Of a stretch of DNA of 39,148 nucleotides, positions 4,480-30,873 are shown piece after piece (position 1 is the stretch's first letter; the number at the start of each line of letters is the position of its first letter). The DNA is taken from positions 1 through 39,148 of the forward strand of contig JBAYNT010000002.1 of NCBI GenBank assembly GCA_041678645.1. The letters run 5' to 3'. The translations under genes were made by a program, and so were the position numbers. The notes below the pieces were generated by a model. That model had not been told where the DNA came from. It saw only the letters and a list, made by a program, of their open reading frames with translations, and made no database searches. The DNA is from Candidatus Dojkabacteria bacterium (lineage in GTDB: Bacteria > Patescibacteriota > Dojkabacteria > SC72).

Positions 4480-4555
4480 ATATTTGAAAAAATAAATTAA
4501 TAGAAAGAGGATAAAGTAAATTGAGAAACAACCTTAATCCTATATTAAGAAAGTT

Positions 4556-4924: not shown

Positions 4925-4931
4925 TGTAAGT

Positions 4932-5624: not shown

Positions 5625-5657
5625 GATTTCTGTCTATATTCATATATAATAGCTATT

Positions 5658-5749
5658 GGAGAGATGCCTGAGTGGTCGAAAGGGGAGCACTCGAAATGCT
5701 TTGTGTGAGTTTACTCATACCGGGGGTTCGAATCCCTCTCTCTCCGCCA
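5658..5749 (+). tRNA. tRNA-Ser (anticodon CGA), CCA encoded
   Basis: Acceptor ggagaga/tctctcc, anticodon loop ctCGAaa, long variable arm, T-loop ttcgaat, 3' gcca. TATAAT at 5645-5650. Confidence 0.94.
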
Positions 5750-5954
5750 TCTTGCTAGAGAGATATTGTCTTAGAATTGAACGTAGAGCAGCAAGAAAAT
5801 TTCCCAGATTTTTACTTATTAGCATTATTCACCATGATGTGGACAACTACACTTAAGTGTCAACGAAGGGCCGTACATAAGCACTTTGCACCGTCTAAAC
5901 TACTATATACTATACGATATATAACTATAGGGGCGAGATATAAAAGGTGGTAAA

Positions 5955-6509
5955 ATGGTCTCCTTTTTGATAATGTATAAGTATATGGAAAATCTTTCAG
6001 AGCCTCTGTCAGAGCAGGCAAAAATCCAAATCCAGGAAGAGATCAAACCTAAGAAAGAAAAGTACTCTATTCTTGAGGTTCTCGTTGTCCTATCTGCAAT
6101 CTCAATTGTTGTTGTACTTGCTTTTTTAGCAATTAATCCGGGCAAACAGGGAGCTGAAGCAAGGAATAGCCAGAGACGAGCAGATGTCTCGTATATCCTT
6201 AGCCAAGTAGTTGCTAATTCCCGTAGTAGAGAAGGGATCTCAAATATTATACCGATAAACGACCAATGTGTTTCTTTCGGAAACGAGATATGTAAAATTG
6301 GGCCATATGACTGCAGAGACTATGTCGATTTAAGCTTTCTAAATGCTCCTAATAGCGAGGATGTTGTTCAGATTCCTACAGATCCTCTCTATATATCAGC
6401 TAACGGTACAGGGTATTACATCGTTCAAGACGGGGCAGGGGGCTTAACAGTATGCTCTCCATATGCAGAAAGAAGCGAAGAGATTACATTTACTAAATAT
6501 TTATATTAA
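5955..6509 (+). CDS. Type IV pilin / pseudopilin-like protein with an atypical long leader
   Basis: Strong SD aaggtgg (5944-5950) lies 4 nt before the ATG. The segment YSILEVLVVLSAISIVVVLAFLAI resembles the class III signal FTLIELLVV with Glu at +5. The C-terminal domain has four Cys. Confidence 0.6.
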   Translation: MVSFLIMYKYMENLSEPLSEQAKIQIQEEIKPKKEKYSILEVLVVLSAISIVVVLAFLAINPGKQGAEARNSQRRADVSYILSQVVANSRSREGISNIIPINDQCVSFGNEICKIGPYDCRDYVDLSFLNAPNSEDVVQIPTDPLYISANGTGYYIVQDGAGGLTVCSPYAERSEEITFTKYLY

Positions 6510-6510
6510 T

Positions 6511-7491
6511 ATGTTAGATATGGGTGGATATTCTGAAAAGAAATTTGAAATGCAAAAGAAGCAAATCCTTCTCTTTGTAACAGTGTTAGCGTTTTTAATC
6601 TTTGCATACAACGCAGGGGAGATTTCTTGGATGAAAGATCTCTTATTATTTATAGAGTTAATATCTTCCATTTTAGCTGTATTTATTGGCCTTCTTGCAT
6701 TAGTGCGCTTTTACACTAAGAAAACTAAGTTAAGTTACCTTGTCATAGGGCTAGGCTTTCTCTTCATTGGGTTCCTAGAGGGGGTACAAATAGTCGTGTC
6801 TGTTGGGAGTTTCCAATCGTTGCTTAACTATTCTCCATCGGAGGTCTTTCCTTTGACGATGGTTATATCTAAAGGGTTTTTAGCGATAGTATTCTTTTTA
6901 AGCTACCTACTAAGGAAGGATTATGAGAATGTAAATAGTAAACAGGAGAAAGGTATTTCTTTAGTAGTTCTCTTTCTCTTTGCTTTTCTAATTTCTATAT
7001 CCTTACTTTTCACAGACATGTTCAATAACTATCAGGAATACCTCCCTGCACTCGTAGGAGGCTTTTTAAGCATGCTGATGTTCCTATTCACTGTCTTTGG
7101 TCATTGGAGGTCTAATACGTGGAAATATGAGTCTTTGGAGTATTGGCAAATGTTCTCCCTAGTTTTTCTTCTGCTCTCAACAATTTTCTTTCTTCCTCTT
7201 CTGAACTTAGAGCATGATTTAATGATGACCTTTTCTGTATTAGCCAAATTCTTCAGCTATATCTTCCTCTTGCTTGGCTTTCTAGTGAGTATTTATGAGA
7301 TGTACAGTAGGGAGTTTGAGTATCTTGAAGAATTTAAAGAGAAAAACAGATTGTTGTTAAAGAGTAAGGAGAGTGTGGAGGAGGCATATATGCTTTTGAG
7401 AGATGAGAAATGGAGGATTGCTAAGGGTAAAGGGAAGGGTAAGATGGAGGGGGTATTAAAAAATATCATTGAGGGTAAAGATGAAAATTAA
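6511..7491 (+). CDS. Polytopic membrane protein (about 7-8 TM, MASE3-like sensor-module resemblance) with a C-terminal coiled-coil and no output domain
   Basis: The ATG at 6511 follows the pilin stop (6509). LLLFIELISSILAVFIGLLALVRFYTKKTKLSYLVIGLGFLFIGFLEGVQIVV resembles the first helices of MASE3-type membrane sensor domains (from memory, not searched). The C-terminus is EFEYLEEFKEKNRLLLKSKESVEEAYMLLRDEK...KGKGKGK. Confidence 0.5.
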   Translation: MLDMGGYSEKKFEMQKKQILLFVTVLAFLIFAYNAGEISWMKDLLLFIELISSILAVFIGLLALVRFYTKKTKLSYLVIGLGFLFIGFLEGVQIVVSVGSFQSLLNYSPSEVFPLTMVISKGFLAIVFFLSYLLRKDYENVNSKQEKGISLVVLFLFAFLISISLLFTDMFNNYQEYLPALVGGFLSMLMFLFTVFGHWRSNTWKYESLEYWQMFSLVFLLLSTIFFLPLLNLEHDLMMTFSVLAKFFSYIFLLLGFLVSIYEMYSREFEYLEEFKEKNRLLLKSKESVEEAYMLLRDEKWRIAKGKGKGKMEGVLKNIIEGKDEN

Positions 7492-8194
7492 GAGGTACCA
7501 AAAGAAGTATGATTTTTCGTATGCATTAGGTACTTATCCCGTTATTGATTTGTTAAATTACAGGGCAAATGAGATTATAACGATCTTTATTAAATCAACT
7601 GCGGATAGTAGTGAGGGAGTAAAGGAGGTGAAGAGATTGTGTAAAGAGAAGGGTATTAGTTTAAATGTATCTGATAGGAGTATTGAGAAGATTGCAGTAA
7701 AGGAGAATACGTATGTAATGGGTGTGTTTAGAAAGTATGATACAGAACTAGAGGAGGGTAATCATTTGGTTTTGATTGAGCCTAGGAATATGGGCAATAT
7801 AGGTACAATTATTCGGACAATGTTAGGTTTCAGTTTTAAGAATTTAGTATTGATAGGTTCTAGTGCTGATATTTTTGATCCTATGGTTGTAAGGTCTACG
7901 ATGGGTGCATTATTTAGGATAAACTTTAAGCATTACAACACTATACAACAGTATATGTCCGGATATCCGAAATATAACTTATATCCGTTTATGTTGGAGG
8001 GGGCCAAGGATATTAGAGAGGTAGAATTTAAAGAGCCTTTTAGTATTGTACAGGGTAATGAGAGTAGGGGGTTAGATAGTAGCTTTAAGGATATTGGGCA
8101 GAGTGTGTATATTCCCCATTCAGAGGATATTGACTCTTTGAATTTAGCAATAGCTACTAGTATTGGGTTGTGGGAGGCTAGCAGGAGAAAGTAG
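7481..8194 (+). CDS. SpoU/TrmH-family RNA 2'-O-methyltransferase
   Basis: SPOUT motifs LIEPRNMGNIGTIIRTMLGF, GNESRGL and IPHSEDIDSLNLAIATSIGLWE. SD gaggg (7471-7475) favours the ATG at 7481 over the TTG at 7469. Confidence 0.85.
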   Translation: MKIKRYQKKYDFSYALGTYPVIDLLNYRANEIITIFIKSTADSSEGVKEVKRLCKEKGISLNVSDRSIEKIAVKENTYVMGVFRKYDTELEEGNHLVLIEPRNMGNIGTIIRTMLGFSFKNLVLIGSSADIFDPMVVRSTMGALFRINFKHYNTIQQYMSGYPKYNLYPFMLEGAKDIREVEFKEPFSIVQGNESRGLDSSFKDIGQSVYIPHSEDIDSLNLAIATSIGLWEASRRK

Positions 8195-10209: not shown

Positions 10210-11061
10210 CTATATCAATTCTGCGCTTCCTAATATTTCATCTATTACTAACAGATCAGCGCTAGTAGCATCATCTGTAGGGCCATAGAAGTAAGCCTCA
10301 TATACATGACCTTCTTCATCGGTGAAATATAGGCCTTCTAGTGTAAGTACTCCCTCTACACAAGGAGGCTCAAAGTAGTTGTTGCCCTCTTTCATATCAT
10401 AGAAATATTTCTCTCCAATTCTTCTAAAAGTAACTCCTAGGAATTCAAACTCAACATACTTTTGGTCTCTGTAATCTACAATATTTAAGGTGTCTCCCAT
10501 CTCATCGCTAGCAGATTGTTGCTCAGCATGGTATGAAGGACTATCATCTTCAAATAGGGCGTAGTTGGGACAACCAACAAATCCTATACCAGATACGGCT
10601 TGTAGGGTAAAAACCTGTTTACTCTTCGGGTTTACAATATCTATTGCTGTAAGACCTTTGTAACTGCCACCCATATCGGGAAGAGACTCTGTGCCCTCAC
10701 CATCAAAGTACTCTACAATACTCCAACCCTTGGGTAATTTGGCAGAGATTACCTCTCCTTCAAACATTGTATATTCATCCTTTGGTTTAGCTGCGATATC
10801 TTCTTCACAGTCCTCATCTCCAACTTCACATACTCCTAGATCTGTATCCTCTTCCTCTGTCTCTTGAGTGTTCTCTTGCTCCTCAGGCTCTTGGAAAAAT
10901 TCTGTATATACAATATATCCACCTAGAATAAGGAATAGGAGGGATAAGACGATCACTAAAATTACTATACCTTTCTTTTTCCCTTTCCCACCTTTTGGCT
11001 CAATATTTTTTGTAGCCTCTGGCCTACTTATGGTAGGGGACTCTGCGTTATTATTCTCCAT
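10210..11061 (-). CDS. Hypothetical N-terminally membrane-anchored protein with an acidic linker and an extracytoplasmic domain
   Basis: Basic patch KGGKGKKKG, TM IVILVIVLSLLFLILGGYIVY, acidic EEQENTQETEEEDTD, four Cys. It overlaps the upstream gene by 11 nt (operon). Confidence 0.6.
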   Translation of the reverse strand: MENNNAESPTISRPEATKNIEPKGGKGKKKGIVILVIVLSLLFLILGGYIVYTEFFQEPEEQENTQETEEEDTDLGVCEVGDEDCEEDIAAKPKDEYTMFEGEVISAKLPKGWSIVEYFDGEGTESLPDMGGSYKGLTAIDIVNPKSKQVFTLQAVSGIGFVGCPNYALFEDDSPSYHAEQQSASDEMGDTLNIVDYRDQKYVEFEFLGVTFRRIGEKYFYDMKEGNNYFEPPCVEGVLTLEGLYFTDEEGHVYEAYFYGPTDDATSADLLVIDEILGSAELI

Positions 11062-11332
11062 CTAAATTATCCTCTAAATTTATATCGCATGCTCTCTCTG
11101 TACATGCTATGACACCGTCATTGCATACACACACATTACAACCATCTCCAGAATCAAAACTCTCTCCGTGTTCATATGACCAGCCCTGATAGGGGCATCT
11201 ATTCAATGTTCTGTTCTGTATCCTATACTCGGAATATACCACATAACTTATTAATCCTAAAAGGATTACACCTAGGGTGATTGATAAACTTAAAAGAAAA
11301 TTTTCTTTGTCTTTCATATAGGTAGAGGCCAA
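11051..11332 (-). CDS. Small membrane-anchored Cys-rich protein with a VWC-like six-Cys motif
   Basis: TM FLLSLSITLGVILLGLISYVVY, then CPYQGWSYEHGESFDSGDGCNVCVCNDGVIACTERAC. The start codon directly abuts the ABC gene stop. Confidence 0.55.
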   Translation of the reverse strand: MASTYMKDKENFLLSLSITLGVILLGLISYVVYSEYRIQNRTLNRCPYQGWSYEHGESFDSGDGCNVCVCNDGVIACTERACDINLEDNLDGE

Positions 11333-19162: not shown

Positions 19163-19193
19163 TTAATCCGCGAGATTGTGTATAATACGAAAC

Positions 19194-19547
19194 ATGAATA
19201 GTATAGTAAATAAAATATATGCGGACACTCTTTCAGATAAATTGCAGGGAACAATCAACTCAGATGGAGGTCTGTTTTCGCAATTTAGTGTAGAAGATGG
19301 AAATGCATTAGGCAACATTACATCTTCGATATTAGCGATTGCTCTACCATTAGCAGGTACTGTGACCTTAGTACTTTTAATTGTTGCTGGTTATAAGATG
19401 ATGAGCAGCCAGGGAAATCCTGATAAACTTAAAGATGCTAGGGAGATGATAACTAATGCAATAATAGGGTTGGTGTTTATACTGTTATCTATAGCAATAT
19501 TACTCTTAATATCGAATGTGTTTAATTTAGATGCTATAAATGCTTAA
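19194..19547 (+). CDS. TrbC/VirB2-like (T4SS_pilin-type) two-helix membrane protein, paralog 1
   Basis: TM1 ...TLVLLIVAGY, loop KMMSSQGNPDKLKDAREMITN, TM2 AIIGLVFILLSIAILLL. The ATG at 19194 is preferred over the TTG at 19176 because TATAAT sits at 19181-19186. Confidence 0.7.
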   Translation: MNSIVNKIYADTLSDKLQGTINSDGGLFSQFSVEDGNALGNITSSILAIALPLAGTVTLVLLIVAGYKMMSSQGNPDKLKDAREMITNAIIGLVFILLSIAILLLISNVFNLDAINA

Positions 19548-19879
19548 TGAAAAAATCAACTAAGAATTTTTTTAAGGGGGGCTTATTTGTAACTATAGGC
19601 GGTCAAGTTGTAGACTTCCCAATAGTTGAGAAATGGAAAGATTTGGATGAAGTAATTCTTGATGTCAAAGACATAATCAATGCTTTTATTATGTTCTCAT
19701 CTGTTGTTGCAGTTGCTATGATTATTGTCTCTGGATATACTTTGATTACTGCTATGGGCAATCCGGACAAGATAGAGCAGGGGCAGAAGACTTTAACAGC
19801 TGCTATCATAGGTTTGATAGTGGTGTGGATAGCAGGTTTGATAATTAAGTTTGTTTTAACCCTGCTTGAAGTTGGCTAA
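19547..19879 (+). CDS. TrbC/VirB2-like pilin, paralog 2
   Basis: ...AMIIVSGYTLITAMGNPDKIEQGQKTLTAAIIGLIVVWIAGLII. Its ATG overlaps the paralog 1 stop (TAATG). Confidence 0.7.
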   Translation: MKKSTKNFFKGGLFVTIGGQVVDFPIVEKWKDLDEVILDVKDIINAFIMFSSVVAVAMIIVSGYTLITAMGNPDKIEQGQKTLTAAIIGLIVVWIAGLIIKFVLTLLEVG

Positions 19880-19881
19880 TA

Positions 19882-19910
19882 TTGATAAGTTAGGGATTCT
19901 TTGGTAAAAT
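19882..19910 (+). promoter_or_regulatory. Sigma-70-like promoter inside the pilin array (TTGATA-N17-TAAAAT with TGn extension)
   Basis: -35 ttgata at 19882-19887, a 17-nt spacer, and an extended -10 tggtaaaat at 19902-19910. It lies 36 nt upstream of the paralog 3 ATG. Confidence 0.5.
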
Positions 19911-19945
19911 TCAAATTATAAATAAATTATTATTAAATTACGAAC

Positions 19946-20245
19946 ATGAATATAGGCAGTATTACAAACCCACTCGATATCCCAACATTGGGAGAATTGG
20001 TAACAAAGGGTTTAAATTTCGCTATTGGTGCAGCCGCAGTAATTTGTGTTGCAGTATTAATCGGAAGTGGTTATATGTATATTACCGCTGCTGGAGATGA
20101 GAGTAAAATTGAGAAAGCTGGTAAATCATTAACATTCGCAATTGTTGGCTTAGCTATAGCATTTATAGCAGTGTTGTTAGTAAACTTTGTCCTTGATGAG
20201 GTTTTGATGAAAACAAAAGCGTTGGTTACTACAGTAATAGCATAA
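19946..20245 (+). CDS. TrbC/VirB2-like pilin, paralog 3
   Basis: ...VAVLIGSGYMYITAAGDESKIEKAGKSLTFAIVGLAIAFIAVLLV. Confidence 0.65.
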   Translation: MNIGSITNPLDIPTLGELVTKGLNFAIGAAAVICVAVLIGSGYMYITAAGDESKIEKAGKSLTFAIVGLAIAFIAVLLVNFVLDEVLMKTKALVTTVIA

Positions 20246-20254
20246 TAGCTTTAT

Positions 20255-20527
20255 ATGTTAAATTTTTCTTTGCTTAATAACCCAACTGATTATGAGAGTC
20301 TAAGTGGTTTCGTAATAAATCTTATTAACCTAGCCATTAGTTTTTCTGTTATCATTGCCGTAGCTGCATTAATACTTGCAGGATTCAAATATATACTAGC
20401 AATGGGTGATGAAGAGAAGGTTGAGAATGCTACTAGATCTCTAATATTTGCCTTAGTAGGCCTGGTAATTGTATTTATTGCACCTTTACTTGTAAAATAC
20501 ATTACATCTTTAATGGGTGTTGAATAG
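20255..20527 (+). CDS. TrbC/VirB2-like pilin, paralog 4
   Basis: ...VAALILAGFKYILAMGDEEKVENATRSLIFALVGLVIVFIAPLLV. Confidence 0.65.
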   Translation: MLNFSLLNNPTDYESLSGFVINLINLAISFSVIIAVAALILAGFKYILAMGDEEKVENATRSLIFALVGLVIVFIAPLLVKYITSLMGVE

Positions 20528-20550
20528 TAATTTTATGCTTTAATAATTAA

Positions 20551-20805
20551 ATGGATGAGCCTGCAAGAATAGAAGAAATATTCACCAGCCTTGATAAGGT
20601 CTTAGACTTCCTTTTTCCTTTTGGTGTAATCCTTGCTCTCGCCTTTGTCGTCGTGGGTGGATATATGTGGATGTCTTCTGCTGGTAATCCAGATAAAATT
20701 AAGCAAGCCCAAGGCACACTTACATGGGCCATCATTGGCTTAATCTTTGTATTAATTTCAGGACTCCTGCTTAAGACTTTGATTGATTACATTGTCGGAA
20801 TGTAG
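20551..20805 (+). CDS. TrbC/VirB2-like pilin, paralog 5
   Basis: ...LAFVVVGGYMWMSSAGNPDKIKQAQGTLTWAIIGLIFVLISGLLL. Confidence 0.7.
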   Translation: MDEPARIEEIFTSLDKVLDFLFPFGVILALAFVVVGGYMWMSSAGNPDKIKQAQGTLTWAIIGLIFVLISGLLLKTLIDYIVGM

Positions 20806-20816
20806 GATAATCTGAT

Positions 20817-22619
20817 ATGAGTAAACTGCCTATTTTTAACATTACCGTTTTTGTTCTTCTTTCTTTTTTTCTTCTTCTTTTTCAGTTTACTCCTGCATAT
20901 TCTAGCCCAGCAGACGAGCTAGAAAAAGATATAGAGCAGACACAGGAGGAGATTAAAAAGAATGAATCTAACCTGCGAAGTATCGAAGCCAGGATTAAAG
21001 AGATCTCAAATAGTAACTATTCTGTTAGTCAGAAAATTAACCTACTAAGTGCTGAAGTAGAGGAGATTGAAACAGTACTAGAGGCAAAGAATAGCGAAAT
21101 AGAGGAGAAGCTGGAAGAAATAGCTCAGAAAGAAGAAGTAATTAGACAGAAGAAAGATTTGGTTGCTTCTGTTTCTAGTCAATTGTATATGGAGAGTAGA
21201 GTAGGTACTGTAGAATTCTTCTTTTCAAATAGTCGTATAGATGATGTTATACATTCTTTTTTTGTTAAGAAGAGCACTATTTCATTACTAAAGGATGAGA
21301 TTACTGAGATTACAGGGGAGTTTGAGAGTCTTACTGTTCTTAAGCAGGAGTTAGAGAGTGAGAAGACTGAATTGGATAGTCAGAAGAAGGATTTAGATGA
21401 CTCTCATAATCTTCTTTTAGCTGAAAGGGCTAAATTGCAAAGAGAGTTAAATGAGACATATAACAGTAGGAATTTGGTTAGTAGGACCATTAATGGTCTT
21501 AAGTCTGAACTTTCCGATTTGCAGTATCATTTACTTGTGGTTAGACAGGGAGGAACTAATGTAAATGCATCTTCAGTACCAGGGAGTACGGATAATAAGT
21601 CTACATTACCTGGGTTTTTGGCAAATGCGCCTAGTGACACATTTGCAGTATTTTCAATAGGGGCATATACGCATAGAAATGGTATGAGTCAGTGGGGTGC
21701 AAGGGCAAGGGCTGATTCAGGGCAATCATATACGCAAATATTAAATCACTACTATCCATCATTTATAATTACATCTGGTTATCCTGAGCCTGCTACAGTT
21801 ACAATTAGAGGGGATGGCCTTGATTGTAATAATAATGCTAAATATTACAATGAGACTTTAAATTTTGATACCTATATGAATCGTATATTTGAGATGCCTG
21901 CCTCTTGGAATCCTGAAGCGGTTAAAGCTCAAGCTATTGCAACAAGGAGTTTCGCTATTCACCAAATAAACAGGAATGGATATATCAGACCGAATCAGTC
22001 AGATCAGGTCTATAAGAACTGTGGTAATGGATCTGGTTGGATAAATGCTGTAAATGCTACAAAGGGTCAAGTCTTAACAAGTGGTGGTAGTGCAGCTTTT
22101 AGTCAGTATGCTGCTGTACATGGAGGTTGGAGTAATACTTCTGGTTGGGATACTACCGATGGTTCAGGTAGTGGTGATTGGATGGCTAGGGCATATGACA
22201 GTATTTCCAGGGTATCTTGGTTTTATCAGACTTGGTATACCTCAGGATCTAGTACTTGTGGTAGGAATCCATGGATGACACAAACAGAGATGTCAGATAT
22301 TGTTAATGCGTACCAGGTATGGGCAGCTAATGGTGGAAGTGATGGTCGTATAGTTCCTGTATATGATGCTTGCCACTCTAGTGGCAATCCATATTCTTAC
22401 TCCGAATTGAGAAAGTTGGCTGCGAAACCGGTATCGTCGATATCTGCCGTTGTCACGAGTAACAGTAACGGTTCAACTGGAAGCATTACTTTCTATACTA
22501 ATGCTGGGAATATAACGATTCCAGCTAGTTATTTTAAGACAATCTATAATATGAGGGCCCCTGGGCATCTTCATATTCCTCAAAACGGGTTTGTGCATAT
22601 AAATATTGAAAAGAAATAA
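20817..22619 (+). CDS. Secreted/anchored coiled-coil protein fused to a SpoIID/LytB-type peptidoglycan lytic transglycosylase domain
   Basis: Signal/TM FNITVFVLLSFFLLLFQFTPAYS. About 200 aa of heptad-rich sequence (EKDIEQTQEEIKKNESNLRSIEARIKE...). SpoIID motifs are NGMSQWGARARADSGQSYTQILNHYYP, IFEMPASWNPEAVKAQAIATRSFA, DQVYKNCG and FSQYAAVHGGWSN. Confidence 0.8.
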   Translation: MSKLPIFNITVFVLLSFFLLLFQFTPAYSSPADELEKDIEQTQEEIKKNESNLRSIEARIKEISNSNYSVSQKINLLSAEVEEIETVLEAKNSEIEEKLEEIAQKEEVIRQKKDLVASVSSQLYMESRVGTVEFFFSNSRIDDVIHSFFVKKSTISLLKDEITEITGEFESLTVLKQELESEKTELDSQKKDLDDSHNLLLAERAKLQRELNETYNSRNLVSRTINGLKSELSDLQYHLLVVRQGGTNVNASSVPGSTDNKSTLPGFLANAPSDTFAVFSIGAYTHRNGMSQWGARARADSGQSYTQILNHYYPSFIITSGYPEPATVTIRGDGLDCNNNAKYYNETLNFDTYMNRIFEMPASWNPEAVKAQAIATRSFAIHQINRNGYIRPNQSDQVYKNCGNGSGWINAVNATKGQVLTSGGSAAFSQYAAVHGGWSNTSGWDTTDGSGSGDWMARAYDSISRVSWFYQTWYTSGSSTCGRNPWMTQTEMSDIVNAYQVWAANGGSDGRIVPVYDACHSSGNPYSYSELRKLAAKPVSSISAVVTSNSNGSTGSITFYTNAGNITIPASYFKTIYNMRAPGHLHIPQNGFVHINIEKK

Positions 22620-22679: not shown

Positions 22680-22970
22680 ATGGATTATAAAACAAAGGTT
22701 GCACAAACAAGATTAAGCCCCTCTGTAGTTAGAGATATAGAGGTTAAGCTTAAAAAAACTGGCTTGACAATGTCTGATTATCTTAGACTACTTGTATTAA
22801 AAGATTTAGATAGATTACCAATAGAGGTACCTAAAGATTTACCAACTATGGAATTAACTAAGGAGCAGGAGAAAGAATTAGATAAGGCAATGGAGGATGT
22901 AAAAGCGGGTAGGGTAACGGAGGTTGTTAACGTAGATGAGTACTTTAACAATCTTTATAAAAATGAGTAA
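22680..22970 (+). CDS. Type II antitoxin, ribbon-helix-helix (RelB/DinJ/CopG-like)
   Basis: N-terminus KVAQTRLSPSVVRDIEVKLKKTGLTMSDYLRLLVLKDL has a strand-helix-helix pattern. The C-terminus is acidic. 8-nt ATGAGTAA overlap with the toxin gene. Confidence 0.75.
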   Translation: MDYKTKVAQTRLSPSVVRDIEVKLKKTGLTMSDYLRLLVLKDLDRLPIEVPKDLPTMELTKEQEKELDKAMEDVKAGRVTEVVNVDEYFNNLYKNE

Positions 22971-23259
22971 AGATAAATACTCTCTTAATACAACTAAAAG
23001 TGTTGATAAAAAGATTAGGAAATTGGGAAAAGGTAATAAAAGATTAGATAAGGAGATGCGAAGAACTTTCAAGCAATTAGAAAAGAACCCTTTTTATAAG
23101 TCTTTAAAAACACACAAGGTAAATACCGGAAAGTGGGGGGAAGCTTACAGCTCTAGAGTAACTGGGGATATTAGAATTTTATGGTATTTATATGATAAAA
23201 ATCTTTTAATCCTGATTATCGATATAGGGGGTCATTCTGGATCTAAAAGTGTCTATTAA
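22963..23259 (+). CDS. Type II toxin, RelE/ParE superfamily
   Basis: MSKDKYSL...FKQLEKNPFYKSLKTHKV...WGEAYSSRVTGDIRILWYLYDKNLLILIIDIGGHSGSKSVY matches the RelE/ParE pattern (..nP....K.L.G....ysiRv..dyRi.Y......i.i..ig.H...Y). The start at 22963 is preferred over 22936. Confidence 0.75.
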   Translation: MSKDKYSLNTTKSVDKKIRKLGKGNKRLDKEMRRTFKQLEKNPFYKSLKTHKVNTGKWGEAYSSRVTGDIRILWYLYDKNLLILIIDIGGHSGSKSVY

Positions 23260-23315: not shown

Positions 23316-23942
23316 ATGGCACAAAAAACAGATGTACCAAAAAAATTTAGAGATAAGAGATTTGCCTTTATAAGGGCTCTCCCTGAATCCTTTGACCGAG
23401 ACAAAAATGTTGACATCTTCCCTAAAAATGTACGATTCGATAGGAAGGAAGAGGGTGAAGAGATAATAATGATTACCAGAAAACATTGGACAGCATATTT
23501 CACTCATATCCTAGTTGCCATACTCATACCAATAGTTCCAATAGCCCTGTTATTCATTTCATCAAACTCTACAGACATTTATGGAAAAGTTACAATATAT
23601 TTGGGCCTTTTCGTAGCCTCCATTGTTATTTCGGTGAATGTAATTATCACAGCGATAGTGCAGTGGTATTACAACATTTCAATAATTACGGATAAAAGAA
23701 TTCTGTCGCTTAAGGTAACAAGCATATTCCAACACTCATATACCGAGATCCTTTGGAGAAAGATACAGGATGTAAGCCATGACAGTATAGGGCTACTAAG
23801 CTCAATATTTGATATTGGGAACATATATATTGATACTGCTGGAGAAGGTATTGATCTTACCCTGAGATTTGTGCCTAAGCCAAGGAATGTACAGGAAGTG
23901 ATTAATAATTTAGTTGATTTAGCTCATGACGGAGAGCTCTAA
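23316..23942 (+). CDS. Membrane protein with a bacterial PH (bPH_2/YdbS-YdbT-like) domain
   Basis: Two-TM hairpin, then ITDKRILSLKVTSIFQHSYTEILWRKIQDVSHDSIGLLSSIFDIGNIYIDTAGEG, the typical bPH_2 signature. Confidence 0.7.
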   Translation: MAQKTDVPKKFRDKRFAFIRALPESFDRDKNVDIFPKNVRFDRKEEGEEIIMITRKHWTAYFTHILVAILIPIVPIALLFISSNSTDIYGKVTIYLGLFVASIVISVNVIITAIVQWYYNISIITDKRILSLKVTSIFQHSYTEILWRKIQDVSHDSIGLLSSIFDIGNIYIDTAGEGIDLTLRFVPKPRNVQEVINNLVDLAHDGEL

Positions 23943-23950
23943 ATAAAGAT

Positions 23951-24205
23951 ATGAATATTGACTATACAAGCATATATGACAGTATAAACGTAGGAGTATC
24001 TGTAACAGGAAGCCTCGTTAAGGTTCTTGTAGGATTAATCCTTTTTGCCATTGTGTTCTACTCTTTCATGTTTATCCTTAAATTCCGAGTCCTCCAAGAC
24101 ACCGTAGATATATCATCTAGCGCTGTTTCCAAACTAGTGGTTACAGTAAATCTAGTGATATCCCTACTGGGTGCAATATTAGCTTTCATATTAATTCTAC
24201 TCTAA
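23951..24205 (+). CDS. Small 2-TM membrane protein
   Basis: 84 aa with two hydrophobic helices. 8-nt gaps to both neighbours indicate an operon. Confidence 0.5.
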   Translation: MNIDYTSIYDSINVGVSVTGSLVKVLVGLILFAIVFYSFMFILKFRVLQDTVDISSSAVSKLVVTVNLVISLLGAILAFILILL

Positions 24206-24213
24206 AAAACAGC

Positions 24214-26385
24214 ATGCCATTTACTGCCTTACAATTTGTACAAAACAGTAAAAATAGCAACTCCTTTATTGGGGTATTTCGATATCTAAAAACTTCTGGC
24301 GTTAAATCTTCCAAAGAGGGTGAACTATATGGTTTTGTAACAATATCAAGTGAAGGGAATCTCCCTGCAGAAAGAGTCGCACATATAGCGTGGGACGGAG
24401 TAGTAGAAGGATATATGTACTCTCAGAGTAAATCCATCTCAGAATCTCTTAAATCAGGAATACAGGAATTCACAAGAAGACTTAAGGATTTGATGAGAAA
24501 CAGTAAAGAGCTAGAGGAGTCCGGAATAGATGCAAGTCTGGTAATCATCTCAGCTACCAAGGAGGGAGTATATGTTGCCAATTTAGGAGAAAATGAGATT
24601 TATGCCTACAGAGGAGAAAAGGTCGTAGATATTATAGAGATTTTGGAAAAAAATAATGCTCAGACAGCAGGCTTCATAATCTCAGACAGTGATCTTTTAG
24701 TAATTTCTACTGCCTCATTAATTTCGGAGAACATGCATACCTTAGTTGGTAAAAATAGCAGGGAAGATGTTCTGAAAGCTTTAAATCTTCTAGGGAAGAC
24801 ACTACTTCCTAACCAAGCTGTATTTTCTATATATTCAGAAAAGGAAGGTAAAGCGGAACCACTCAATACAGAGCTAATTGAAGAGAAGATCGAGCTGAGG
24901 AGTAGGCCCTTAGAGCCTAAGAAGATAAGGAAAGAAGGTAAAAAAATCGATTTGAAGAGGATACTAGATAGAACTAAGGAGTTTTTTTCTACTATATTTA
25001 CATTTCTGAAAAAGATTTCCATCCCTGTAATCCTATTCTTTAAAAAAACCTTTGCAAAGGTGTGGGTATTCATTAACAAGAAGCTGGGCAATCAGAGATG
25101 GTTTAAAAAATATGCCGCTAAAGCCTCTGAGATGAGACTCAAGAAACGGGCTCCAGGAATAAGAATAGATGGATATAAGGTTAAAGATTTAAGAACACAG
25201 AGGTTTAAGGTCGCTATACTTGGGACAATTGCTGTAATAGTTGCAGTTGCTGGTTATCAATATGCTAGGAAGCAGAAGGTGTTAAGAGAGTTGCATGCTC
25301 AAGCAGACCAGGTTTTTGAAGAAGTCAACAAGAAACTCGATAGTGCTAAAGGAAATCTTGCTACCAATACAAGTGAAGCAGAAAAAGAAGTCTTCTCAGC
25401 GAGCAACCTTTTAAATGATGTCCCGGAGGGGATAGACGAGGAGCATATCAAGAAAATGAATGAATTAGAACAAAAAGTATTGGGTGTAGAAGACAGCCTC
25501 TACAAAAGGGTGGTAGCATCACCTGAATCATTTGTAGGTTTTTTTGAAAATGGTACCGAGCTTACAGATATGAAATATATTCTCGATGATTCTGGTAACG
25601 AAATGTTACTTATTACAGATAAGGGGACTGGTTCTGTATGGAGAGTATCTATATATGACAGAAGTAAGAGTAGGATGGCTGATAACGAGGGCTTAATTAA
25701 ATCTCCTAAATATGTAGATGTAGGTAATGAAGGAGATATTTTCGTGTATGATCAAGAGGTTGGTGTACTTAAGGCAACAGTTTCTGGTTCTGATTGGAGT
25801 CCATTCAAAAAGCTTACAGGAGTAGGTCTTAGCAATATAGGTATTAAAGATGTAGTGGAGTTTGCAGTCCTTACTGCTACTGACAACCTTTACTATCTTG
25901 ATAGAGATAATGCTAGGATCGTAAAAAGTGTTAATTACGGTACAGGGTATAGTAGTACTGTAACTACAGTCATAAATGATGAAAACTTTAGCAAGGCCAA
26001 TGATTTCTTTGCGGATTTTAGTATATATATACTTACCTCAGGTAATGAAGGGGTTTTGAGATACTCTGCAGGTAGTTATGTACCTATTACTGTTGTAGGG
26101 GTTAATGGCGAAATGGGGGAACTAACGTGTGGAAACACTTCTGGGAATATGGACTTCGCGTTCTATATGTTTGATCAGGGAAACAAGAGAGTGTTGAAAT
26201 TAGAAAAGCCAAAAGATAGCTACAATGACAAATTACATCCTAACGAGTTAGTTTTGCTTAATCAGTATGTCTATAGAGGAGATAACAACTCGATGTGGGA
26301 TAATGTAAAAGAAATTGCTGTTGATAGAGCAGAGAAATATATGTATGTATTGGATGGTAATAATGTCTGGAGAATCTCTTTGTAG
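24214..26385 (+). CDS. Bitopic receptor-like protein: degenerate PP2C/SpoIIE-like N-domain, TM, coiled-coil, six-bladed (NHL-like) beta-propeller
   Basis: PP2C-like strings are GVYVANLGENEIYAYRG and DSDLLVISTASL. The TM is FKVAILGTIAVIVAVAGYQY. Six blade-like repeats: LLITDKGTGSVWRV, IFVYDQEVGVLKA, LYYLDRDNARIVKS, IYILTSGNEGVLRY, FYMFDQGNKRVLKL and MYVLDGNNVWRISL. Confidence 0.6.
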   Translation: MPFTALQFVQNSKNSNSFIGVFRYLKTSGVKSSKEGELYGFVTISSEGNLPAERVAHIAWDGVVEGYMYSQSKSISESLKSGIQEFTRRLKDLMRNSKELEESGIDASLVIISATKEGVYVANLGENEIYAYRGEKVVDIIEILEKNNAQTAGFIISDSDLLVISTASLISENMHTLVGKNSREDVLKALNLLGKTLLPNQAVFSIYSEKEGKAEPLNTELIEEKIELRSRPLEPKKIRKEGKKIDLKRILDRTKEFFSTIFTFLKKISIPVILFFKKTFAKVWVFINKKLGNQRWFKKYAAKASEMRLKKRAPGIRIDGYKVKDLRTQRFKVAILGTIAVIVAVAGYQYARKQKVLRELHAQADQVFEEVNKKLDSAKGNLATNTSEAEKEVFSASNLLNDVPEGIDEEHIKKMNELEQKVLGVEDSLYKRVVASPESFVGFFENGTELTDMKYILDDSGNEMLLITDKGTGSVWRVSIYDRSKSRMADNEGLIKSPKYVDVGNEGDIFVYDQEVGVLKATVSGSDWSPFKKLTGVGLSNIGIKDVVEFAVLTATDNLYYLDRDNARIVKSVNYGTGYSSTVTTVINDENFSKANDFFADFSIYILTSGNEGVLRYSAGSYVPITVVGVNGEMGELTCGNTSGNMDFAFYMFDQGNKRVLKLEKPKDSYNDKLHPNELVLLNQYVYRGDNNSMWDNVKEIAVDRAEKYMYVLDGNNVWRISL

Positions 26386-27252: not shown

Positions 27253-29772
27253 ATGGTAACGCAGCAATATTCTAAAGAACAACTTTTTTCACAGGTGGGC
27301 CCTATGCCTACTGAAGAAGTAAGACCTGGCGCACAGGTACAGTACCCCAAAGACTCTTACAACAACAGAGAAATAGATATCCCATGGGGATGGATTACCT
27401 TTGTTTTTCTCTTTATCGGCATCATAATTGCTGTCTACTATATTGTTAAAAAAAGATTAGAGGAAAAAGATAGGGATGATAAAGCTAGCAAATGGGCCCT
27501 ATTTGAAGTAAGAGTACCAAGAACTAATGAGATTGAAATAGGGGAGGCAGAAAAGATGTTCGCTAATCTTATTAGTATTGGCGGAAAAGGTGATGGGTTA
27601 GCTGGTAAATTCACAGTAAACAACTCGATTAGCTTTGAATTGATGGCTATACCAGGAGAGATAAGGTTCTATGTACACTGCCCAAAAAGGTTGGCAGAGA
27701 TGGTTGAGAAACAGATATTAGGTTCATACCAAGACGCAGAGGTTAAGCAGGTCAATGATTATAATATTTTTGATACTAATACCCAGGTTGAATATACGAG
27801 ATTAGAGCTAGAGGAAGAAAATTACTTCCCAGTTAGAACAGCTGAAGGATTTGAAGGTGACCCGCTATCCAACCTACTAAGTAGCTTGAGTAAAATGTCC
27901 CAGGGTGAGGGTGCTATGGTGCAAATCATTATTACTCCTACAGATAATAAATGGCGAAAGAATGGAGAGAAATATATAGGGAAGATCGAATCAAATAATG
28001 CAGATCCTGAGAAAAAGAGAATAGAAGTTTCTCAAGAGAAACTGCAGGCAGTTAACAAGAAGATATCTAAAGCGGGTTTTAAGACAGATATCCGTATAGT
28101 CACGAGTGCTCCTAGTAAAGAATTAGCCAAAATGCATTTGGATAATATTGTTGGTGCTTTCGATCAATTTAGTAATCCAGGAGTTAACAGTTTTAAGAAA
28201 AAGAAAGTAAAGGATAGTGCAAAAGAAGAGTTTATCCATGACGTTATATATCGTAGAACTCCATTGGACTGTAAGACGATTTTGAATACTGAGGAATTAG
28301 CAGCGATATACCATTTCCCTAATAAGGAGATTACCACTCCTAATATCCATTGGCTTCTTTCAAGAGAAATACCTGCCTCTAATGAGATTAATACCGATAT
28401 CAACAGTATTGATACCATTTGGTTGGGCAACAATGAGTATAGAGGAGAGGTAAAAAGAGTTTGTTTTGAAAGAGACGATAGGCGTAGGCACACATATATT
28501 TTAGGGCAGACGGGTACTGGTAAATCATGGCTATTAGCAAGGATGATAGTTCAAGATATCTATAATGGCGACGGAGTGTGTTTTATTGATCCTCACGGAG
28601 ATGCGGCGGAAATGGTGTTAGAGCGTATACCACCAGAAAGAGCAGAGGATGTGATTTACTTTAATGCTGCAGATTTTGAGAGACCATTTGGTTTAAATAT
28701 CATGGAGTTTTATAATGAACAGCATAAACATCAGATTGTAAATAGCTTTATTGCACTTCTTATTCGTATGTTTGATCCTAACAATCAAGGGTTCGCTGGA
28801 CCTATGTTTCAACAGGCTGTACGTAACGCTATGCTCACTGCAATGTCTGAGAAGGGTTCTACGCTCATAGAGGTTGTGCGTATCTTACAAGACGAGCAGT
28901 GGGTCAAGGACAAGTGGTTGCCAATTATTCAAGACGATCTTGTTAGGAGGTATTGGACAGATCAAATAGCTAAGACAGATCAAAAGACAAAATCTGAGAG
29001 TTTAGGCTACTTTATATCCAAGTTTGATAAATTCACCACCAATTTGGCTATTAGAAATATTATTGGTCAGTCAGAATCCTCCTTTGATTTTAGAGACATT
29101 ATGGATAATCAAAAAATCCTTATCGTCAATCTTTCTAAAGGTATGATAGGGGAGGAGAACATGTCTTTTCTTGGGCTATTGCTGGTTCAGAAAATGTTAG
29201 CGGCTGCTTTGAGTAGAGAAAATGTTGAAGAGAAGCAGAGAAAAGATTTCTTTTTCTATGCCGATGAATTCCAAAATTTTGCTACAGACGATTTCTGCAC
29301 AATACTTTCTGAGGCTAGGAAGTATAGGCTAAATCTTACTATGGCCCATCAGTATATTGGGCAATTACCAGAGAATATTAAGAGTGCTGTGTTTGGGAAT
29401 GTTGGTTCTTTACTTATTGCTCGTTGTAGTGCGGAGGATGGTAAGTTTCTAGAGCCTCAGTTTGACCCACTTCTCACTGGAGAGGATCTTATAAATCAAG
29501 GTTTGGCTCATTATTATGTGAAGATGTTAACGAACGGTTCTTATCCTGGACCATTTTCACTTAATACATCCTATGGTAGTAGGTTCCCTATGTCTGGTTT
29601 TGATATGCCAGTTAATCCAGAGGTCCTTGGTCTTATAAAGAAGATGTCTAGAACTAGGTATGGTAGGGATATTAATGTAGTTAATGCTGATATTAAGAGT
29701 AGGGCCGACTTGGATAAACCAACAACGGCTCCTTTGGAAGCTCCTGTAAGTTTCCCACCAATGAATTTTTAG
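27253..29772 (+). CDS. Membrane-anchored FtsK/HerA-superfamily P-loop ATPase, VirD4/TraD/TrwB (T4SS coupling protein)-like
   Basis: N-terminal TM WGWITFVFLFIGIIIAVYYIV. Walker A ILGQTGTGKSW, then VCFIDPHGD. Walker B FFFYADEFQNF, then EARKYRLNLTMAHQYIGQL. I cannot exclude a VirB3-VirB4-like assignment without an HMM search. Confidence 0.7.
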   Translation: MVTQQYSKEQLFSQVGPMPTEEVRPGAQVQYPKDSYNNREIDIPWGWITFVFLFIGIIIAVYYIVKKRLEEKDRDDKASKWALFEVRVPRTNEIEIGEAEKMFANLISIGGKGDGLAGKFTVNNSISFELMAIPGEIRFYVHCPKRLAEMVEKQILGSYQDAEVKQVNDYNIFDTNTQVEYTRLELEEENYFPVRTAEGFEGDPLSNLLSSLSKMSQGEGAMVQIIITPTDNKWRKNGEKYIGKIESNNADPEKKRIEVSQEKLQAVNKKISKAGFKTDIRIVTSAPSKELAKMHLDNIVGAFDQFSNPGVNSFKKKKVKDSAKEEFIHDVIYRRTPLDCKTILNTEELAAIYHFPNKEITTPNIHWLLSREIPASNEINTDINSIDTIWLGNNEYRGEVKRVCFERDDRRRHTYILGQTGTGKSWLLARMIVQDIYNGDGVCFIDPHGDAAEMVLERIPPERAEDVIYFNAADFERPFGLNIMEFYNEQHKHQIVNSFIALLIRMFDPNNQGFAGPMFQQAVRNAMLTAMSEKGSTLIEVVRILQDEQWVKDKWLPIIQDDLVRRYWTDQIAKTDQKTKSESLGYFISKFDKFTTNLAIRNIIGQSESSFDFRDIMDNQKILIVNLSKGMIGEENMSFLGLLLVQKMLAAALSRENVEEKQRKDFFFYADEFQNFATDDFCTILSEARKYRLNLTMAHQYIGQLPENIKSAVFGNVGSLLIARCSAEDGKFLEPQFDPLLTGEDLINQGLAHYYVKMLTNGSYPGPFSLNTSYGSRFPMSGFDMPVNPEVLGLIKKMSRTRYGRDINVVNADIKSRADLDKPTTAPLEAPVSFPPMNF

Positions 29773-29976: not shown

Positions 29977-30873
29977 TTATAAATCCCTTAAACTCTTTTC
30001 ACTCTCAGGATTTTTGTTATCTATAAGGTTTAAATATTTCTCTGTGGTAGATAATCTTTTATGACCAACTAATTTAGAAACGGTCACTAAGCTTACCCCG
30101 TTAGCTAAATGGTGTGCTATAAATGTATTCCTAAGATCGTTAACTTTTGCATTCTTAATACTTGCTCTCTCAAAAGCCTTATCTATAGTTGTTCTAATGT
30201 TTCTAACCAGAAGAGGTCTACCATTCTTAGTTATAAAAAGTGTTTCCTCATCTGTCTCTGGTCTAATCTCTAGATAGTCGTCTATTGCCTTCTTCGCTGA
30301 CTTATTAAGAGGGACATTTCTAGAATCATGACTACCGTAAGGAGCAATATAAATGTAATTCAATTTCTTTCCGTCAACATCCTTACTCTTAATATCATCT
30401 ATGGTAAGAGAGGCTAGCTCTCCAATTCTAATCCCTGTCTGAAGCAATATCTCAATGATAGAGTAAAGCCTTATGTCTGCCCTGCTAACATCTCTCAATG
30501 CTCTATACTCCATCTCAGAAAGAACTCTTGGAGGTTTAGTCTCAAACTTAGGATGTGCTAACTTGTCAGAAGGGTTATCTGAGAGCTTACCAACAGAAGC
30601 AAGGTATTTATAAAAGGTCCTTGTGCTATTTATTTTTCTAGAGACACTTTTAGGGGTGTAGTTGTTGTCCTGTAAATATTTCTTATATGCCTCTAAATCT
30701 TCTATAGAGGTATCCTCTAGTTTTATTGTGCCGTTCTCAGAAAAGAAGTTGAGTAACTGCTCAATATCTTTTGAATAGGCGACAGCAGTAGATTCAGCTC
30801 GGCCCTTACTGCTAAGGTCCTCTATGAAATCTCTATGGTACTGGGCAAAATTCTCGTTTTTTACTTTAATCAA
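29977..30873 (-). CDS. Tyrosine site-specific recombinase, XerC/XerD family
   Basis: N-terminal SAM-like AESTAVAYSKDIEQLLNFF. Catalytic region LLQTGIRIGELASL (Arg), RNVPL, NDLRNTFIAHHL, LVGHKRLSTTEKYLNL (His..Tyr). The apparent start is TTG, since no in-frame ATG lies near the N-terminus. Confidence 0.85.
   Translation of the reverse strand: MIKVKNENFAQYHRDFIEDLSSKGRAESTAVAYSKDIEQLLNFFSENGTIKLEDTSIEDLEAYKKYLQDNNYTPKSVSRKINSTRTFYKYLASVGKLSDNPSDKLAHPKFETKPPRVLSEMEYRALRDVSRADIRLYSIIEILLQTGIRIGELASLTIDDIKSKDVDGKKLNYIYIAPYGSHDSRNVPLNKSAKKAIDDYLEIRPETDEETLFITKNGRPLLVRNIRTTIDKAFERASIKNAKVNDLRNTFIAHHLANGVSLVTVSKLVGHKRLSTTEKYLNLIDNKNPESEKSLRDL

Follow-up and report, generated by a model that had tools for sequence, protein, structure and literature searches.

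What purpose is served by five tandem, divergent pilin-like genes in a single bacterium: do they offer a choice of exchangeable variants, or do they encode the separate parts of one structure? The question is raised by a locus of a 647-kb MAG of Candidatus Dojkabacteria (Patescibacteria), located in a 39,148-nt stretch of DNA that is referred to below as the window. The genome contains five pilin copies in total, all of them in this array. ORF calling of the window places the five tandem genes, numbered here p1 to p5, on the + strand, spanning 19176/19194–20805:

19176 (TTG) or 19194 (ATG) to 19547, + strand: p1, 123 or 117 aa, a two-TM hairpin
19547 to 19879, + strand: p2, 110 aa, with a start overlapping the p1 stop (TAATG)
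19946 to 20245, + strand: p3, 99 aa, without the Sec-type leader found in most orthologs
20255 to 20527, + strand: p4, 90 aa, by profile the most VirB2-like of the five
20551 to 20805, + strand: p5, 84 aa, beginning where the predicted mature N-terminus of its orthologs lies

These lengths agree with a preliminary description of the locus, as does the translational coupling of p1 and p2, whose stop and start codons overlap at 19545–19549. The N-terminus of p1 contains a conserved motif, K(I/V)YA-x-(S/T)L. Its start, TTG 19176 or a leaderless ATG 19194, stays ambiguous because the residues 5′ of ATG 19194, which appear conserved in near relatives, coincide with a TATAAT box (19181–19186). Protein alignment recovers the core motif described earlier in all five paralogs, as (A/S/G)G(Y/F), six residues, G(N/D)(P/E)xK, about nine residues and A(I/L)(I/V)GL; residues G66, G74, K78, A89, G92 and L93 (p1 numbering) are invariant across the five. 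The pairwise identity of the other paralogs to p1 is 22–33%. A repeat comparison within the array found no DNA-level repeats between the paralogs, so the DNA is well diverged, as had been stated, and a recent tandem duplication was rejected.

The assignment of the five proteins to VirB2-like pilins is borne out by the profile search proposed in the preliminary description. All five lie above the curated gathering cut-off of PF18895 (T4SS_pilin, 26.6 bits), with scores of 33.8, 34.4, 30.4, 42.3 and 42.2 bits for p1–p5, and so do 132 of 132 orthologs (best E 3.6e-17). The parallel check against PF04956 (TrbC/VirB2) gave a mixed result: p1, p3, p4 and p5 match weakly, but none reaches the cut-off of 27.9 bits, the best window copy being p4 (25.0 bits, E 2.2e-5) and the others scoring at most 17 bits. 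Of the 132 orthologs, 92 reach E ≤ 0.01 against PF04956 (best E 6.5e-9). Judged by these profiles, PF04956 is a related superfamily, of which the window copies themselves are not members. Proteins p1 (36.5 bits) and p4 (33.2 bits) also match NF045849, a Mycoplasma-ICE pilin-like family, under its cut-off of 40 bits. Spurious weak matches of hydrophobic proteins occur in Pfam searches, and several are present in the Pfam results obtained here.

The topology of a helical-hairpin pilin, also implied earlier, is supported by hydropathy, with two hydrophobic segments in each of the five proteins (52–70 and 95–113 in p1). Each protein is a two-helix membrane hairpin of about 70 residues; its N-tail is short and acidic, and the loop joining the helices is conserved as G-(D/N)-(P/E)-x-K. 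The AlphaFold2 monomer model of p4 comprises helices 16–48 and 53–87 (pLDDT 84). A Foldseek search of this model against the PDB gave a best E of 0.48 (SK channels, CnrX), with no pilin in the top 50; since a two-helix hairpin is too simple to discriminate, this neither supports nor opposes pilin identity. A search of PDB sequences with a profile of the 132 pilins returned chance matches to designed proteins only.

Short two-TM proteins adjoining a peptidoglycan hydrolase, in this case a SpoIID-type enzyme, could also be imagined as a lysis cassette of unrelated, e.g. holin-like, small membrane proteins, the pilin matches being compositional artefacts of a kind that hydrophobic proteins do yield. 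This is extremely improbable, given the scores above the PF18895 cut-off throughout the window set and its orthologs, the additional TrbC/VirB2 matches of most orthologs and a conserved loop motif, G(D/N)(P/E)xK, that is not hydrophobic. Searches of the five proteins against Pfam and NCBIfam profiles found no match to holin families, and in all complete relatives the locus is part of a conserved core-chromosome block rather than of a prophage. A holin–endolysin cassette was rejected.

The main result concerns the relationship of the array to those of related genomes. The five genes correspond to five positional orthogroups, which follow one another in the order 1-2-3-4-5 in 33 of the 48 uncut Dojkabacteria arrays; 11 of the 15 variant arrays differ solely by extra p3 copies. 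Exactly five copies are present in 31 of 60 relatives and six copies in 12. An independent tree was built for 258 pilins; mapping array position onto it for 179 proteins, drawn from 36 five-gene arrays, takes 8 changes where 4 is the minimum, and the p1 and p5 orthogroups each form a single clade. Orthologs are 41–51% identical, against 21–39% for paralogs inside one genome. Separate orthogroups in one order across the class strongly support the earlier proposal of an old duplication with functional specialisation: to judge from these comparisons of sequence, the paralogs are ancient, fixed in order, non-interchangeable and kept class-wide. The five-group scheme is already blurred in one family within the same taxonomic order (four arrays). 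Orthogroup HMMs do not trace the Dojkabacteria orthogroups into 20 arrays from other Patescibacteria classes; the margins there are only 0–16 bits, compared with 20–100 bits within the class, so the scheme is neither extended nor excluded beyond Dojkabacteria.

Paralog p3 is the sole one with a copy number that varies among species. It is amplified to 2–4 copies in 11 of the 48 arrays, all extra genes of the 6- to 8-gene arrays classify as p3, and the core of within-genome p3 duplicates is 76% identical while the N-tail is 35% identical. Divergence concentrated in the predicted exposed N-tail of an amplified paralog, along with the low identity between paralogs, would suit a stock of exchangeable pilins that serves antigenic variation or versatility in host range. 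That reading is suggested in PMC12102498; it has been put forward for the virB2 paralogs of Bartonella and Anaplasma and, with reservations, for the arrays of Patescibacteria. It is distinctly unlikely for the array studied here, where p1, p2, p4 and p5 are single-copy orthogroups with a fixed class-wide order and a conserved N-terminal architecture of their own, there are neither silent cassettes nor DNA repeats for recombination, and p3 itself is present only once. Moreover, several array pilins of Candidatus Southlakia epibionticum are reported to be essential (PMC10633639), which argues against redundancy. The antigenic repertoire named as an option in the preliminary description is thus a misfit for the five-gene set, and could fit only p3.

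The N-termini provide further distinctions. Their stepwise shortening, noted earlier, is real in the window but does not characterise this type of array, the lengths in other genera being, for example, 108/109/120/89/105 aa. It reflects no graded design, because the genus has lost the signal-peptide-like leaders of p3 and p5. According to alignment, most p3 and p5 orthologs possess a 20–30-residue leader-like segment of the form MK...hydrophobic...(F/Y)A(Q), usually ending in PVFAQ in p5, and the window proteins do not. Paralog p4 has a leader in no species and is 87–99 aa long in 31 of 33 canonical arrays; the two longer calls (108–109 aa) look like over-extended starts. The leader calls rest on ortholog alignment rather than rule-based signal-peptide scoring; a crude rule flags 18/33 p3, 16/33 p5 and 1/33 p4 orthologs, and is too crude for Ser/Thr-rich leaders. 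In the alignment, N-terminal architecture is specific to each orthogroup and conserved within it.

The spacing of the genes is also conserved, with median intergenic gaps of 2 (p1–p2, across 33 species), 69, 27 and 1 nt in succession. The widest of these, between p2 and p3, contains a further element in the window:

19882 to 19910, + strand: internal sigma-70-type promoter, TTGATA-17-TAAAAT with an upstream TG, ending 35 nt 5′ of the p3 ATG

A raw promoter scan of this AT-rich window region yields 11 sites, which is not above chance (8.4 ± 3.5 in shuffles), and cross-species conservation was used as evidence in place of a simple scan. Orthologous p2–p3 spacers carry TTGCAA/TTGATA-17-TATAAT, conserved in position and sequence in about 30 other species. 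A promoter score of at least 10/12 is reached by 59% of p2–p3 spacers versus 7.5% of shuffles, and the distance from the −10 box to the ATG is 31–36 nt in 21 of 34 spacers. The promoter is retained even in two arrays with a 1-kb gene inserted between p2 and p3. This conservation upholds both the promoter proposed in the preliminary description and the existence of at least two transcription units. The spacer comparison supports a first unit consisting of the translationally coupled p1–p2 and a second, p3–p4–p5, driven by the internal promoter; the second probably runs on into the SpoIID-type hydrolase gene.

Two genes downstream of the array may be relevant to its function:

20817 to 22619, + strand: membrane-anchored coiled-coil and SpoIID/LytB-domain protein, 600 aa, beginning 11 nt after p5
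27253 to 29772, + strand: VirD4/TraD-like (T4CP-like) ATPase, 839 aa, 6.4 kb 3′ of the array

The SpoIID-type protein matches PF08486 (SpoIID, 48 bits) and TIGR02669 (99.6 bits). Its gene follows the array directly in almost every relative, including those related only at class level, and is a probable operon partner; the product is a candidate peptidoglycan-opening enzyme, analogous to VirB1. The ATPase matches PF02534 (39.3 bits), PF10412 (25.9 bits) and DUF87, and its PDB matches, DotL and TrwB, span the P-loop region only. The array and these two genes belong to one class-wide syntenic block. No homologue of VirB4 or VirB6 was recognised in the 39-kb window; VirB4 and PrgI are encoded, in one copy each, on another contig, and 59 of 61 relatives have a single VirB4. 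The array and virB4 are 76–97 kb apart in complete genomes from this family and 6–7 kb apart in a sister family. A mobile-element origin of the locus was rejected: no relaxase is present, the domain set of the integrase at 29977–30873 is of Xer type and the block is syntenic class-wide. Beyond Dojkabacteria, three PF18895 domains are joined in a natural 353-aa ORF of another class (a Rosetta-stone hint), and fusions of the pilin domain to a 1239-aa CARDB-containing protein occur in other classes.

Five orthologs, one order, one internal promoter and orthogroup-specific N-termini therefore point to a defined multi-subunit structure. The five genes probably encode non-redundant VirB2-superfamily (PF18895) pilin-like proteins, which together would make up a single pilus or conduit associated with a T4SS. 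They would belong to the chromosomal, relaxase-less T4SS carried by Patescibacteria. By analogy with VirB2 and TraA, the hairpins may insert N-out/C-out, an orientation that cleavable p3 and p5 leaders would enforce in most species; with the leaders gone in this genus, the short acidic tails would have to cross the membrane unaided. The unlinked VirB4–PrgI(VirB3) module might then pull the hairpins out of the membrane to form one heteromeric pilus or short conduit, for which the neighbouring SpoIID enzyme would make an opening in the wall. Promoter position and copy-number behaviour suggest p3 as the abundant, exposed subunit and p1/p2 and p4/p5 as accessory subunits of fixed stoichiometry, placed at the base, at the tip or where assembly is initiated. 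By analogy with Southlakia epibionticum, the structure could serve epibiotic exchange with a host cell. Several points count against this explanation: p3 and p5 of the window are without the leaders that would fix their topology, the array is not beside virB4 in this genome and family, the window contains no recognised VirB6 homologue, and the orthogroups are not traceable into other classes.

A fixed five-gene set would also fit a defined complex that never leaves the membrane, namely a heteromeric channel part or platform of a monoderm T4SS, composed of VirB2 homologues without an extracellular filament. VirB2-type pilins are so far undescribed for monoderm T4SSs outside Patescibacteria, and in diderms transfer requires the pilin even if no pilus is made (PMC12857230); the sub-threshold matches to the pilin-like conjugal transfer protein found in ICEs of wall-less Mycoplasma point the same way. 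Nevertheless, the class-wide retention of a wall hydrolase gene directly 3′ of the array suggests that something crosses the cell wall, and the CARDB fusion in other classes looks like surface display. A purely membrane-bound role is rather unlikely, although sequence alone cannot separate it from a pilus.

If the five proteins do form a pilus or conduit, a bolder version can be put forward tentatively, as possible but doubtful: an obligately heteromeric VirB2-type filament or conduit built from five dedicated pilins in genetically fixed composition, with coupled p1/p2 and p4/p5 pairs and an abundant, exposed, evolvable p3. It would be the first heteromeric conjugative-type pilus, and in a monoderm, and the leader loss in p3 and p5 would show that these pilins insert without a signal peptide. 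To our knowledge, all solved conjugative pili are homopolymers of a single pilin, and neither filaments nor complexes nor expression have been reported for VirB2-like proteins of Patescibacteria. In the sole genetically tractable Patescibacterium, both the T4SS and its pilins are indispensable for epibiotic life. The published view is one of variable pilin repertoires; a class-wide five-ortholog set points to a defined multi-subunit structure instead, in which p3 is indicated as the subunit likely to be exposed and evolving. It is predicted that each paralog is individually essential, that subunit stoichiometry is set and that the filament is heteromeric; these predictions are relevant to T4SS research on Saccharibacteria and on further members of the candidate phyla radiation (CPR), as Patescibacteria were formerly called. 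As regards the window alone, the outcome amounts to a sound annotation, not to a discovery.

Diderm T4SSs normally have one structural pilin gene, whose product loses a long N-terminal leader to signal peptidase and polymerises into an extracellular homopolymer with bound phospholipid; some members are cyclised. The VirB2/TrbC/TraA pilins of diderms (T-pilus, F-pilus; PF04956) resemble the Dojkabacteria proteins in being small two-helix hairpins with a charged inter-helix loop and an N-terminal leader, the latter predicted in many Dojkabacteria orthologs. They differ in that the array described here comprises five obligate paralogs in a monoderm, which score under the PF04956 cut-off and, in this genus, are devoid of p3 and p5 leaders. 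The Mycoplasma ICE protein Mbov_0395/MMCAP2_0565 (NF045849) is likewise a small two-TM pilin-like protein of a wall-less/monoderm, MPF-FATA-type T4SS; however, it is single-copy and serves conjugation, and the window proteins score under the cut-off of its family.

Several tandem virB2-like genes per genome are found in Bartonella and Anaplasma phagocytophilum as well; as cited in PMC12102498, these are read as lineage-specific amplifications for antigenic or host variation, whereas four of the five paralogs considered here are single-copy, class-conserved orthologs. The closest characterised counterpart is the pilin array in the essential T4SS cluster of Candidatus Southlakia epibionticum ML1 (Saccharimonadia), SEML1_0006–0019 (Wang et al. 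2023, PMC10633639). Both loci consist of tandem, divergent VirB2-like two-TM pilins of the same Pfam family associated with a chromosomal, relaxase-less T4SS. Strain ML1 has six such pilins (PMC12857230), situated within the virB4 cluster, while the five in the window are on another contig than virB4/prgI.

Arrays of 2–11 VirB2-like pilin genes have thus already been published for Patescibacteria (Wang 2023; Quinonero-Coronel 2025). Quinonero-Coronel et al. (2025, PMC12102498) described 441 arrays in 383 Patescibacteria assemblies, with a mean identity of 25%, and the window corresponds to their definition (tandem PF18895/PF04956 genes, 22–33% identity, Patescibacteria chromosome). Dojkabacteria are absent from the main text of that work, which contains no orthology analysis between arrays and favours a versatility/antigenic reading. 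The array reported here differs in being a set fixed in number and order, with p3 alone expanding; what is new is the fixed order of five orthogroups, the expansion confined to p3, the conserved p2–p3 promoter and the genus-specific loss of leaders.

Five open reading frames follow one another on the forward strand between positions 19176 and 20805 of the window and encode proteins p1–p5, with lengths of 123 (or 117, if p1 begins at the 19194 ATG), 110, 99, 90 and 84 aa:

19176 or 19194 to 19547, forward strand, pilin paralog p1
19547 to 19879, forward strand, pilin paralog p2
19946 to 20245, forward strand, pilin paralog p3
20255 to 20527, forward strand, pilin paralog p4
20551 to 20805, forward strand, pilin paralog p5

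The preliminary description had read them as well-diverged VirB2/TrbC-like pilin paralogs with a shared core, and the protein alignment agrees. The core consists of a hydrophobic helix, (A/S/G)G(Y/F), six residues, G(N/D)(P/E)xK, about nine residues, A(I/L)(I/V)GL and a second hydrophobic helix. Proteins p2–p5 are 22–33% identical to p1, and no DNA repeats link the paralogs. The stop codon of p1 and the start codon of p2 overlap in the TAATG at 19545–19549, as the preliminary description noted; no obvious Shine–Dalgarno sequence precedes any of the five genes. The start of p1 is ambiguous (TTG 19176 or ATG 19194). A TATAAT box at 19181–19186 ends 7 nt before the ATG, inside the alternative TTG frame, so p1 may be leaderless and begin at 19194.

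All five proteins exceed the curated Pfam cut-off for T4SS_pilin (PF18895; 30.4–42.3 bits versus 26.6), while matches to TrbC/VirB2 (PF04956) are below threshold, the best being that of p4 (25.0 bits versus 27.9). Among 132 orthologs scanned singly, PF18895 was found in all 132 and PF04956 in 92 at E ≤ 0.01. In NCBIfam, a pilin-like conjugal transfer protein of Mycoplasma ICEs was matched near threshold. Two hydrophobic segments are present in every one of the five, and the AlphaFold2 model of p4, built on a 132-sequence alignment, is a hairpin (helices 16–48 and 53–87, mean pLDDT 84). Foldseek and a PDB profile search returned nothing significant; the fold is too simple for this to count for or against the assignment. 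The alternative of unrelated, holin-like membrane proteins was rejected; no holin family matched any of the pilins. The array is real, was correctly read and is biologically meaningful.

The source assembly (647,487 bases, 75 contigs, 94% complete; the window is contig C2) contains no PF18895 copies other than these five. The family is present in 58 of 60 relatives (59/61 with the window's own genome), with exactly five copies in 31 and six in 12; in a phylum-wide sample it occurs in 150 of 151 genomes, in 1–15 copies.

The comparison drew on 20 arrays from relatives and on 74 loci surrounding the SpoIID gene that follows the array. A first tree, of 100 pilins, grouped the proteins by array position and not by genome (SH-aLRT 97 for p1, 95 for p5, 99 for p4 and 87 for p2), with p3 paraphyletic around p4. 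In an independent tree of 258 pilins, the position label needs 8 changes against a minimum of 4 (179 proteins, 36 five-gene arrays), or 5 once two divergent arrays are left out; p1 and p5 each form one clade. Orthogroup HMMs read the order 1-2-3-4-5 in 33 of the 48 arrays uncut by contig ends, and 11 of the 15 variants differ only by added p3 copies (1-2-3-3-4-5, n = 7; three p3, n = 1; four p3, n = 1; 1-2-3-3-3-5, n = 2). Mean identity is 41–51% between orthologs versus 21–39% between paralogs of one genome. Together with the grouping by position, this indicates that the duplications, judged old from the outset, took place before at least two families of the order radiated, and that every paralog has been separately kept since. 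In other classes, arrays of 5–9 genes exist; the Dojkabacteria orthogroups are not recognisable outside the class. Of the two roles suggested earlier, specialisation is strongly supported by the positional orthogroups, and for all paralogs but p3 the evidence contradicts an interchangeable antigenic repertoire.

N-terminal architecture also differs between orthogroups. Proteins p1 and p2 carry the short conserved motifs K(I/V)YA-x-SL and IGG, respectively. Orthologs of p3 nearly always have a Sec-type leader (MK..K, a hydrophobic stretch, FAQ or AxA), and in those of p5 the leader, usually present, ends in PVFAQ and precedes a PPxL motif; leaders are absent from all p4 proteins, which measure 87–99 aa in nearly all 33 canonical arrays. 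The p3 and p5 proteins of the window and of its nearest relatives begin where the predicted mature N-terminus falls elsewhere. The stepwise shortening described previously does hold in the window (123/110/99/90/84), but it results from lineage-specific leader loss; other genera have, for example, 108/109/120/89/105 aa. The N-tails of the window pilins are short and net acidic, which would be compatible with unaided N-tail translocation. In the hairpin core, duplicated p3 proteins of one genome are 76% identical; in the tail that joins the leader to the first helix, they are 35% identical. By these sequences p3 appears to be the evolvable member of the array and, lying directly behind a conserved promoter, the likeliest subunit to be abundant and exposed.

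This promoter, TTGATA-17-TAAAAT preceded by TG (19882–19910), lies in the 66-nt spacer ahead of p3. It had been proposed from one sequence, where a scan could not demonstrate it; cross-species conservation now backs it. In almost every species TTGCAA or TTGATA, 17 nt and TATAAT directly follow the p2 stop. A promoter score of at least 10/12 is reached by 59% of p2–p3 spacers versus 7.5% of shuffles, exact TATAAT occurs in 25 of 34 spacers, and the −10 box lies 31–36 nt upstream of the p3 ATG in 21 of 34. Median gaps across arrays are 2 nt (p1–p2), 69 nt (p2–p3), 27 nt (p3–p4) and 1 nt (p4–p5). In two species (L036 1879–2883 and L041 1857–2849), p2 and p3 are separated by an inserted 1 kb gene, whose product of about 330 aa matches no Pfam family; the promoter is kept directly upstream of p3. 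The SpoIID-type gene begins 11 nt past p5 and is, from this gap, probably cotranscribed with it.

The array lies within a block syntenic up to class level: AP endonuclease, UvrD/PD-(D/E)XK helicase–nuclease, the five pilins, coiled-coil SpoIID/LytB protein, bPH membrane protein, an 84-aa two-TM protein, a 723-aa protein, SmpB and a VirD4/TraD-like ATPase. The bPH, 84-aa and 723-aa genes are tightly packed (23316–26385) and syntenic with the array to class level; the 723-aa protein has no Pfam match, a weak PP2C-like hint N-terminally and hydrophobic segments near residues 257 and 331. A NikA-like (RHH)/YafQ-like toxin–antitoxin pair (22680–23259) between the SpoIID and bPH genes is, judged by synteny, an insertion. 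Apart from the window, only one same-genus genome (L012) has it here; in L025 it lies at another position. Pacifastin is an arthropod protease-inhibitor domain, unexpected in a bacterium; a 93-aa Cys-rich ORF (11051–11332, reverse strand) adjoining two ABC exporter genes scores above the Pfam Pacifastin_I cut-off (30.5 bits versus 27.9).

Further T4SS components are encoded on contig C13 of the same genome (L031), adjoining recF-like and lepA genes and unlinked to the array:

4026 to 6455, reverse strand, VirB4, 809 aa (P-loop_TraG, AAA_10, CagE)
6433 to 7080, reverse strand, 215-aa ORF between VirB4 and the PrgI/VirB3-like gene
7080 to 7910, reverse strand, PrgI/VirB3-like protein, 276 aa

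A single VirB4 copy was found in 59 of the 61 genomes searched, namely that of the window and 58 of 60 relatives. In complete genomes of the window's family, 76–97 kb separate VirB4 from the array, compared with only 6–7 kb in a sister family, where the helicase–nuclease gene lies between VirB4 and the five pilins (G039:C1 550100–560290; G043:C5 224604–235403).

From the established homology, hairpin, orthogroups, order, promoter, leader pattern and synteny, we infer that a single T4SS-associated pilus or conduit is built from the five proteins as non-redundant subunits. The proteins would insert N-out/C-out, be extracted by VirB4–PrgI and assemble into a heteromer whose major exposed subunit would be p3; the SpoIID enzyme would open the wall for the structure to pass through, possibly to allow exchange with a host cell. 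Sequence does not distinguish the pilus reading from one in which the proteins are a channel component embedded purely in the membrane. A hint that different paralogs assemble side by side comes from another class, where one 353-aa ORF (L110 4051–5112, reverse strand) contains three tandem PF18895 domains (80.3 bits, three stretches), a natural three-hairpin fusion. In another Patescibacteria class, a 1239-aa protein (L115 2341–6060, forward strand) with an N-terminal PF18895/TrbC pilin domain and a CARDB domain resembles a surface protein or adhesin anchored by a pilin; a similar ORF occurs at L116 (1907–5689, forward strand), and a 3312-aa open frame in genome G149 has the same domain.

Such pilin arrays, as a kind, are already published. 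For Candidatus Southlakia epibionticum, Wang et al. (2023) reported pilins of the T4SS cluster to be essential (PMC10633639). Quinonero-Coronel et al. (2025) described 441 VirB2 arrays of 2–11 genes in 383 Patescibacteria assemblies, with a mean identity of 25%, and suggested versatility towards hosts (PMC12102498); the main text mentions neither Dojkabacteria nor orthology between arrays, and nothing newer on either was found in the literature. The same study found no VirB1 near most pilin genes (PMC12102498); here the neighbouring SpoIID enzyme could plausibly take over its function. A 2025 review highlights these pilins as the only case known of VirB2 in Gram-positive-type (monoderm) T4SSs, which otherwise lack it (PMC12857230). 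Set beside these published arrays, three incremental points are new: the fixed organisation of five paralogs across the class, the conservation of the internal promoter and leader loss as the explanation of the shortening.
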